Assembly: GCA_963719635.1 (NCBI GenBank)
Contig: CAVRCS010000004.1
Span: 459,465-523,464, forward strand
DNA from: an uncultured Thermoplasmata archaeon
Lineage (GTDB): Archaea > Thermoplasmatota > Thermoplasmata > Lutacidiplasmatales > UBA184
Reading direction: 5' to 3'
DNA length: 64,000 nucleotides
The position numbers and the translations under genes are program-made. Under the pieces are notes generated by a model. The model did no database searches. It worked only from the letters and a program-made list of their open reading frames with translations, and had not been told where the DNA came from. Below, piece by piece: positions 6,817 to 7,825 of this stretch (the first letter of the stretch is position 1; every line of letters starts with the position of its first letter).

Positions 6817-6882
6817 CCGCCCTGCCGCAAGGGCGCCTTTCGGTCCGACACCTTTTTCCCCGTGGGGCCGGTCCCAGGTCGT

Positions 6883-6985
6883 GGCCGGGATGGGGTAGCT
6901 TGGTTATCCTGGGGGACTGTGGATCCCTCGACCCGGGTTCAAATCGGCGCGGGGTTCCCCCGCCGTGAAACTCTCGGTCCCGGCC
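6883..6985 (+). tRNA. tRNA-His(GUG) with a 28-nt intron at 59/60 (6944-6971)
   Basis: Acceptor GCCGGGA/TCCCGGC, anticodon loop CTGTGGA, T-arm CCGGG-TTCAAA^T-CTCGG, encoded G-1 opposite C73, no encoded CCA. Confidence 0.92.
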
Positions 6986-7825
6986 CTACCCGGAGCGGCG
7001 GGAGCCGCGCCGGGGCGTTCGGCTCGCAGGACGGCTACGGCGCTTTGACATGCGGTCGAGCACCGCCGGCAGCTCGCTGAGCGAGAACGCCGCCCAAGCC
7101 GCCCCCCACCGCTCGAGGTCGTCCGGAGTGAGTGTCCACCCTTTCACGGTGCTGGCGCGGCCGAGCGGGACGACCCCTTCGACCGACCGGGCGGCCTCCA
7201 TGTCGAACCGGGAGTCCCCCACCAGGAAGAACGGAACCGAGCCGTACCGCCGGCGGTACTCGGCGAGGTGCTCCCGTTTCGTCCCTTCCCGCGAGCCCAG
7301 GAGGTCGTCGAACCAGTAGCGCAACCCCTCCCGTTCGAGCAGGAGCTCCGCCATCTCCGTCTCGGAGCCCGTGGTGACGGCGAGGTTCCAGCCGGCGGAC
7401 GAGAGCGTCTTGAGCATCTTGGGGACGTCGGGGAACGGCTTGGCGCGGGCGTACGCCTCCGTGACCTTCCGCTGGTGGAACGTCCGGGCGGCCGCTACCC
7501 GCTCCGGGGGCGGCGCGTCGGGGAACAGCTGGGCGAGCTGCGCCTCAAACGGCATCCCGGTCGTCGCAAGGTAGTGGACCCGGCCCTCCTCGAGGGGGGT
7601 GCCGAACGCCTGGTGCAGGACCTCCGCCGCGACTTCGGCGATCAGGTCGAGGTCGTCGAGGAGGGTTCCGTCCAGGTCGAACAGCACGACCCCGCGCCCG
7701 ACCGGCACGGAGGCGGCGGCGGGCACCGGTCGGGGCGGGAACGCCATCGTATGCTCGTGGCGCGAGGAGGTCACCACCGGCAGCTCGAGGCGGGCGGGGG
7801 CGTCCGCCTGGGGGTTCTCCGGCAT
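6986..7825 (-). CDS. HAD superfamily hydrolase
   Basis: FDLDGTL motif I, VTTG motif II, VGDSRFD motif IV. Confidence 0.85.
   Translation of the reverse strand: MPENPQADAPARLELPVVTSSRHEHTMAFPPRPVPAAASVPVGRGVVLFDLDGTLLDDLDLIAEVAAEVLHQAFGTPLEEGRVHYLATTGMPFEAQLAQLFPDAPPPERVAAARTFHQRKVTEAYARAKPFPDVPKMLKTLSSAGWNLAVTTGSETEMAELLLEREGLRYWFDDLLGSREGTKREHLAEYRRRYGSVPFFLVGDSRFDMEAARSVEGVVPLGRASTVKGWTLTPDDLERWGAAWAAFSLSELPAVLDRMSKRRSRPASRTPRRGSRRSG

Follow-up and report, generated by a model that had tools for sequence, protein, structure and literature searches.

A BHB intron at position 59/60 of tRNA-His and of other tRNA genes in a Thermoplasmata archaeon

Position 59/60 in the T-loop is listed among the non-canonical positions of archaeal tRNA introns (PMC4090602). 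In ARMAN-2 (Ca. Micrarchaeum) introns at this position have been described for pre-tRNA-Cys(GCA) and pre-tRNA-Pro(GGG) (PMC3239211). According to the relevant sections of two reviews, splicing endonucleases (EndA) of the alpha4 and alpha2 types handle only canonical bulge–helix–bulge (BHB) introns, and euryarchaea carry introns only at position 37/38 (PMC4090602, PMC4033280). The (alpha-beta)2 and epsilon2 types alone are stated to cut non-canonical introns, and the A. fulgidus EndA was unable to process relaxed substrates of the HBh' and hBH kinds (both in excerpts of PMC5829648). In passages of PMC4033280 and PMC3239211 Korarchaeum cryptofilum is called the only archaeon with an alpha2 EndA and non-canonical introns.

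Genomes of the Lutacidiplasmatales have been described, in the portion of the genome paper concerned with them, as having about 69% G+C and 2.1 Mb and as coming from acidic soil; for the type genome, tRNAscan-SE 2.0.5 in archaeal mode gave tRNAs for all 20 amino acids (PMC9287336). The word "intron" is absent from this genome paper (PMC9287336). A literature search returned no description of T-loop introns in Thermoplasmata, though supplementary tables of tRNA surveys may list cases.

The DNA analysed here, called the window, is a stretch of 64,000 nt that corresponds to G000:C4:459465-523464, where G000 is the source assembly, from an uncultured Thermoplasmata archaeon; coordinates without a contig name are those of the window. 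Direct reading of the sequence revealed a tRNA-His(GTG) gene at 6883-6985 (plus strand), with the following features, all on the plus strand.

6850..6859, +: T-rich element ACCTTTTTCC resembling a promoter, with its centre about 28 nt upstream of base 1 of the tRNA gene; no other A+T-rich patch lies upstream
6883..6943, +: 5' exon, with G-1, the 5' strand of the acceptor stem, the D arm, the anticodon arm, the variable loop, the 5' strand of the T stem and T-loop positions 54-59
6883, +: G-1, encoded, opposite the discriminator base C73 (6985)
6884-6890 with 6978-6984, +: acceptor stem, GCCGGGA / TCCCGGC
6893-6895 with 6908-6910, +: D stem
6912-6916 with 6924-6928, +: anticodon stem, 5 bp with the 7-nt loop CTGTGGA, 100% paired in 21 sequences
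6919-6921, +: anticodon GTG
6933-6937 (CCGGG) with 6973-6977 (CTCGG), +: T stem, which is also the outer BHB helix H1, 5/5 pairs, 100% of the cells paired in 21 sequences
6938-6941 (TTCA, T54-A57, exon strand) with 6966-6969 (TGAA), +: central BHB helix, 4 bp
6942-6944, +: 5' bulge AAT, predicted from the BHB rule to be cut at 6943/6944
6945-6949 (CGGCG) with 6961-6965 (CGCCG), +: inner helix of at least 5 bp, with compensatory changes at 5 pairs
6944-6971, +: intron of 28 nt, made up of the inner hairpin (6945-6965), TGAA (6966-6969) and AC (6970-6971)
6970-6972, +: 3' bulge ACT, predicted cut at 6971/6972; ACT or a close variant in all orthologues
6972..6985, +: 3' exon, with T60, the 3' strands of the T stem (6973-6977) and of the acceptor stem (6978-6984) and the discriminator base C73 (6985)

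The insert lies between T-loop positions 59 and 60 (T54 is 6938 and A59 is 6943) in a strict hBHBh' fold. The preliminary description of this DNA had reported a tRNA-His with a 28-nt insert at 6944-6971, and we could confirm each of its coordinates and helices base for base. By the established BHB rule the cut falls after the second nucleotide of each 3-nt bulge. It had also been claimed that such cleavage restores TTCAAAT; this holds by direct reading, since removal of the insert in silico leaves exactly this T-loop of 7 nt, with the G53-C61 pair present. Read from G000 alone, the junction is ambiguous by one base, as each bulge has T as its last base. Relatives have G, C or A as the last base of the 5' bulge; T60 therefore comes from the 3' bulge and the junction is fixed at 59/60. 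In the minimum-energy fold (z = -2.3) the four tRNA stems and the inner intron helix are formed and the TTCA/TGAA helix is absent.

G-1 opposite C73, an identity mark for HisRS, is a GC pair in 21/21 orthologues. An element matching the T-rich patch, AAACCTTTTCTT, is situated at -36 to -25 in 20/20 orthologues of the same genus and is a putative archaeal TATA/BRE promoter. CCA is not encoded; the discriminator base is directly followed by CTA. This CTA is the stop codon of a convergent gene for a HAD-family hydrolase (6986-7825, minus strand; Pfam HAD_2, E 1.8e-18), and CTAC is kept 3' of tRNA-His in most orthologues of the genus.

That standard scans may miss the gene had been anticipated, and they did: ARAGORN run on the whole unspliced window gave 0 tRNA genes, and Rfam gave no tRNA match in the window at its gathering score. 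At a lax threshold Rfam scored 14.4 bits, with only 6891-6947 aligned to the tRNA model. The sequence spliced in silico was recognized by ARAGORN as a 75-nt tRNA-His(gtg).

We considered how often such a structure would be found by shape in the source assembly (1.83 Mb on five contigs, 70-71% G+C, 82.6% complete). A strict BHB scan of the genome yielded 46,168 BHB-shaped candidates, only seven of which gave an ARAGORN tRNA across the junction after removal in silico. These seven were tRNA-His, four other verified tRNAs with a T-loop intron, and two artefacts, namely a Pro-GGG with a 69-nt insert and an Arg-TCG with a 106-nt insert. In DNA of 70-71% G+C the BHB shape alone is thus not significant.

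An intact tRNA-His elsewhere, with this copy unexpressed, had been named in the preliminary description as a finding that would speak against the gene. A second tRNA-His was not found in the 82.6%-complete assembly by ARAGORN, whole-genome Rfam or DNA search; at this completeness a second copy is possible outside the assembled part. The second DNA match to tRNA-His in G000 turned out to be 27 nt of a tRNA-Glu T arm and not a second copy. ARAGORN with introns allowed made 96 calls, most of them with implausible introns of hundreds of bases, and the short canonical ones were used as leads; a "His atg" row with a 644-nt intron is noise.

The full pre-tRNA-His including the intron was recovered by DNA search of 40 relatives in 20/24 genomes of the same genus (19/23 without the unpublished G019); the four genomes without a match are 62-79% complete. 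In an alignment of 21 pre-tRNAs, which leaves out G019, the exons are almost invariant and the intron is variable: the 5' exon is nearly invariant and the 3' exon has a single variable column. Nevertheless the pairing is kept, as 97.1% of the pair cells are standard compared with 27-68% after sliding of the 3' partners. Two-sided changes occur at six pairs, of which five belong to the inner helix, and the covariation score was reached by 0/500 shuffles. The central helix is paired in 95.2% of the cells. Its A57 pair is replaced by an A-G or A-A mismatch in many relatives, in 4/21 sequences of this alignment and in 6/7 loci from other genera. In relatives the tRNA-His motif is accordingly often not strictly canonical. 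The description of the motif as a textbook BHB is correct for this gene with its strict 4-bp central helix; among relatives, many of which show the A57-G mismatch, the strict form is the exception.

One RNA library (run X19) contains a small share of the sampled words. Its single contig of 167 nt, the allele of a relative between foreign flanks, spans 6891-6989 and retains the intron; no exon joint is listed. The intron-bearing contig may be precursor or carried-over DNA. A contig from another run, X20, was rejected, being the intron-less tRNA-His of another organism.

The X19 contig bears on the question whether the insert is removed at all. If it were not, the locus would be a pseudogene, a relic of an attachment site or the gene of a mature tRNA with an extra arm in the T-loop, and such a reading could point to this sole RNA contig, which keeps the insert and in which no spliced RNA was seen. 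Against it, the gene is the only tRNA-His found in the assembly, its exons are strongly constrained in 21 genomes and the insert keeps the exact EndA geometry. In addition, this architecture recurs in twelve other tRNAs, among them several sole isoacceptors. A T-loop is needed by all tRNAs, and an insert of 28 nt would destroy it. We regard retention of the insert as extremely improbable. Very probably 6883-6985 is a working and apparently the only tRNA-His(GUG) gene, with an inherited 59/60 BHB intron that is spliced by EndA and RtcB.

Outside the genus, eight tRNA-His loci were taken from six further genera of the family, and 7/8 have the 59/60 intron, GGAG being in most of them the 3' strand of the central helix; the remaining locus (1/8) failed the T-loop filter. 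In the same order, G028 of family f3 has a 14-nt intron at 59/60 of tRNA-His. The tRNA-His intron at this site also occurs in three further families of the class (f11, f22 and f24), which makes five together with f3 and the family of G000. The tRNA-His of family f2 has a 37/38 intron instead, and six other families are intron-less. The preliminary description had taken the intron for an independent gain in this lineage. Its occurrence in 20 of the 24 genomes of the genus, in six other genera and in f3, f11, f22 and f24 speaks against this, and judged from these loci the intron is inherited and not newly gained. The class-wide pattern may reflect one old gain with losses, or several gains.

The tRNA-His gene is one of many. 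At least 13 of about 44 credible tRNA genes of G000 (approximately 30%) carry a 59/60 intron, so that at least 12 further genes with the same T-loop intron had been overlooked in the preliminary description. The figure of about 44 comprises 31 Rfam matches over the cut-off, 9 intron-bearing genes below it, Leu-TAG, and Arg-GCG, initiator Met and Trp. An Rfam tRNA match is overlapped by 12/13 of the intron-bearing genes, and several of the other twelve tRNAs are sole isoacceptors. A strict hBHBh' with a 4-bp central helix at 59/60 was seen in His, Asp, Gln-CTG, Gly-TCC, Lys-TTT and Arg-TCG, and one mismatch in the central helix in Glu-CTC, Arg-TCT, Ala-GGC, Asn, Ser-GCT, Ser-GGA and Leu-TAG. 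All 13 follow a common plan in which the T stem is the outer helix, the bulges are AA/N and mostly AC/T (the slash marking the cut) and the inner hairpin is G+C-rich. TTCR is paired with YGRR, or with GGAG or GGAA when R57 is A, giving an A-G mismatch in 7/13. The introns are 26-38 nt long.

These genes were not obtained by a single scan. The strict BHB scan missed 7/13 T-loop introns on account of the mismatch in the central helix, and also Gly-TCC, which has a 2-bp inner helix. R1, a covariance model that was built from 19 sequences and covers the T arm together with the intron, gave eight matches of 38.7-58.7 bits on G000 and then none above 20 bits; Glu-CTC, Arg-TCT and Ala-GGC were new. 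Asn, Ser-GCT, Ser-GGA and Leu-TAG were added by a relaxed T-loop scan and by reading weak Rfam matches. Of the 63 candidates from the relaxed scan, 50 were rejected because they are situated in coding-like sequence and have neither a tRNA body nor an Rfam tRNA match. Several tRNAs called intron-less by ARAGORN score only 20-24 bits in Rfam because they contain the T-loop insert and were mis-folded by ARAGORN. As general tRNA finders miss or mis-fold these genes, the tRNA complements of such genomes look incomplete.

Canonical introns occur in G000 in Trp, Met, Tyr and Leu-TAA. Lys-TTT and Leu-TAG have a second insert in the D-loop, and initiator Met has a D-loop insert only (G000:C4:299490-299633, C1:257800-257960 and C4:232700-232800, respectively, with approximate boundaries). 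In tRNA-Gly(TCC) (G000:C4:267668-267771; L103) a C occupies the place of U33, the loop being CCTCCAA in G000 and G007 and CTTCCAA in G003 and G022. Weak Rfam tRNA matches were further noted at G000:C1:3738-3815 and C3:78469-78529. An orphan tRNA 3' half at G000:C1:520291-520329 consists of a T arm with an intron-less TTCAAAC loop and an acceptor strand, with no 5' half nearby; it may be the leftover attachment site of an integrated element.

Thirteen tRNA genes with an insert at the identical site and with the same pattern at the 3' end might suggest that the 59/60 introns are a recently mobile element copying between tRNA genes, and intron transposition has been reported for Thermoproteales (in part of PMC4090602). 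The 13 inner sequences are no more alike than shuffled ones: the maximal local score of 14 was reached in 62/300 shuffles and the mean in 138/300. There is thus no sign of recent copying, and the common 3' end is dictated by the pairing to TTCR. Moreover, in loci from G003, G007, G011, G022 and G033, 17/20 were tRNAs with a T-loop intron, in which the exons are near-identical and the hairpins have diverged but still pair; the other 3/20 failed the T-loop filter. As G003, G007, G011 and G022 have the intron in the same tRNAs, the copies are old and orthologous. Recent mobility of the introns is very unlikely in our view.

R1 matched 24/24 genomes of the same genus, 4-11 times each. Among 150 genomes drawn from the order it matched 144/144 genomes of the family in seven genera (141/141 without the unpublished G019, G050 and G061), 0/4 in family f2 and 1/2 in family f3, these counts being lower bounds with 40 candidates scored per genome. 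In a draw of 150 genomes of the class, 24/135 genomes outside the family, from 11 families, had exactly one match each. Sixteen of these class loci were fetched; 14/16 are real tRNAs with a T-loop intron and 2/16 failed the T-loop filter. They were assigned as follows.

tRNA-His: f11, f22 (two genomes), f24
tRNA-Arg(CCG), also with a canonical intron: f6 (three genomes), f10, f14, f26
tRNA-Lys(TTT), with three introns: f27 (two genomes)
Leu-TAA: f30
Glu-TTC: f24

From these matches the 59/60 intron emerges as a thinly spread trait of the class, mostly of tRNA-His and tRNA-Arg(CCG), which is expanded in one family. The tRNA-Arg(CCG) genes with both a 37/38 and a 59/60 intron occur in four families of the class, and several were mislabelled as Trp by ARAGORN; the double-intron loci are L133 (G033), L186, L188 and L191 (family f6), and L187, L189 and L195.

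The preliminary description had proposed surveying the tRNAs and the EndA architecture across the lineage. Besides the at least 13 intron-bearing genes in G000 and the matches in all 144 family genomes, this survey brought out a two-unit EndA in 40/41 genomes across the class (39/40 without G019), where a single open frame holds two PF01974 units spaced by about 540 nt. The EndA of G003, a protein of 354 aa encoded at L139:396-1460, matches the two-unit enzyme of A. fulgidus (1r0v; E 3e-27), and its residues 187-354 align to residues 4-171 of the M. jannaschii enzyme (1a79) with no net insertion. In the alignment with 1r0v the motifs FRAY, HARYLV and VRK line up with FRVY, HSEYLV and VRK; the Tyr, His and Lys of these motifs of the C-terminal unit are what we take to be the catalytic residues of EndA. 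The EndAs of the family are colinear over about 348 residues with those of G028 and other relatives without the expansion. Judged by alignment length, there is no specific loop (CSL, ASL or L3) in the family EndA, with small compensating indels possible. By its domain layout the family EndA is of the two-unit alpha'2 type.

The EndA gene of G000, by contrast, is broken across three reading frames (G000:C2:27400-28300; loci L031 and L032). These breaks probably stem from indel errors in the assembly, and such errors would agree with its completeness of 82.6% on only five contigs. A gene for the ligase RtcB was found at G000:C4:319384-320688 (561 bits).

With these components we propose the following path from the gene to the tRNA. 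The gene would be transcribed from the conserved promoter-like T-rich element situated about 28 nt upstream. The T stem of the precursor would form the outer helix, T54-T55-C56-R57 would pair with TGAA of the intron 3' end to give the 4-bp central helix, A58-A59-N and A-C-U60 would be the two 3-nt bulges, and the G+C-rich intron hairpin would be the inner helix. An alpha'2-type EndA with two units, predicted to be a homodimer, would then cut after A59 and before U60. Joining of the exons by RtcB would create the T-loop UUCAAAU for the first time. CCA would be added afterwards, as it is not encoded. Both bulges and both flanking helices are kept, so that cleavage by a strict enzyme is plausible, though less certain with the A57-G mismatch that is frequent among these introns. 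Points that speak against this path are the minimum-energy fold with its missing TTCA/TGAA helix, the intron-bearing X19 contig, the broken EndA frame of G000 and the reviews' restriction of alpha4 and alpha2 enzymes to canonical introns.

The mechanism would be that of ordinary archaeal BHB splicing and the 59/60 site was already known; the interesting part is the expansion at a single site in a euryarchaeal lineage with an alpha'2 enzyme. The position in the T-loop is shared with ARMAN-2, whose Pro(GGG) intron also is a strict hBHBh'. However, as far as described in PMC3239211, ARMAN-2 has a three-unit epsilon2 EndA with a specific loop and a relaxed hBH intron in Cys, whereas the enzyme in the family of G000 is a plain two-unit one; G000 moreover uses the 59/60 site in at least 13 tRNAs. 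As in Thermoproteales and other Crenarchaeota, many tRNA genes are interrupted outside 37/38, some of them by two introns (sections of PMC4090602 and PMC4033280). The Thermoproteales introns are described there as having scattered positions and often relaxed motifs, and as being served by an (alpha-beta)2 enzyme with a Crenarchaea-specific loop. In contrast, the extra introns of G000 are almost all at one site, keep both bulges and the flanking helices and show no sequence similarity to each other. The motif geometry and the enzyme type are the same as for the 37/38 introns cut by the alpha'2 EndA of A. fulgidus (PDB 1r0v/2gjw), but the exon strands are the T stem and T-loop here and not the anticodon stem–loop. 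Like Korarchaeum cryptofilum, the family of G000 combines a two-unit EndA with non-canonical intron positions; the korarchaeal EndA is described, in the passages concerned, with the crenarchaeal extra loop, whereas the G003 EndA has no net insertion relative to M. jannaschii.

The site itself may explain why introns of the 59/60 class came to occupy at least 13 tRNA genes in the family. Both the T stem and TTCR are provided by the exon in every tRNA, so that two helices out of three are supplied in advance, which would favour this site; an insert would then need only a hairpin and the 3' end YGRR-AC for a strict-BHB enzyme. On these grounds we tentatively put forward, as a rather unlikely reading in its full extent, that the 59/60 insert is a portable splice cassette which can be spliced even by a strict alpha'2 enzyme, colonised a third of the tRNA genes in the ancestor of the family and was kept, possibly shielding attachment sites from integrating elements. 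Reviews link non-canonical positions to endonucleases of broad specificity; a family that combines a plain two-unit enzyme with interruption of about 30% of the tRNA genes at a single non-canonical site offers a natural way to ask whether it is the motif, and not the position, that the enzyme limits. If the insert is such a portable cassette, the enzyme architecture would not limit the position of euryarchaeal tRNA introns, which would speak against the current co-evolution model.

Protection from integration is an idea known from the literature on disrupted tRNA genes. It leads to a further alternative, in which the intron is spliced and is kept by selection, either because it splits the segment from the T arm to the 3' end that serves integrases as attachment site, or because the excised, probably circular, hairpin RNA is functional. 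The long retention in the same tRNAs across species while the intron sequence drifts, and the recurrence in tRNA-His in five families, would fit selection, and the orphan 3' half at G000:C1:520291-520329 with its intron-less T-loop could be an old attachment-site remnant. Yet retention would equally be expected of a neutral insert whose sole route of loss is exact deletion, and in the excised part only the structure and not the sequence is conserved, which argues against a sequence-specific function of the RNA. Maintenance by selection is in our opinion quite improbable.

The DNA data sets that contain this stretch are soil metagenomes. A nearby gene for succinyl-CoA ligase matched MAGs labelled "Thermoplasmata archaeon" and no others, with 58-83% identity. 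In one of them (run X2; window 6905-6943) short contigs with a depth of 34-48 end exactly at the last exon base, 6943, and the contig that continues through the intron has a depth of 6.3. This pattern probably reflects several strains with the same exon and different introns in one soil.

Finally, a tRNA-Met with a 28-nt canonical intron was found to be duplicated in G000 together with a nearby coding stretch (C4:41624-49653 and C5:10011-18042). The two copies are in opposite orientation and differ by a 1-nt indel, and are either a large inverted repeat or an assembly duplication.
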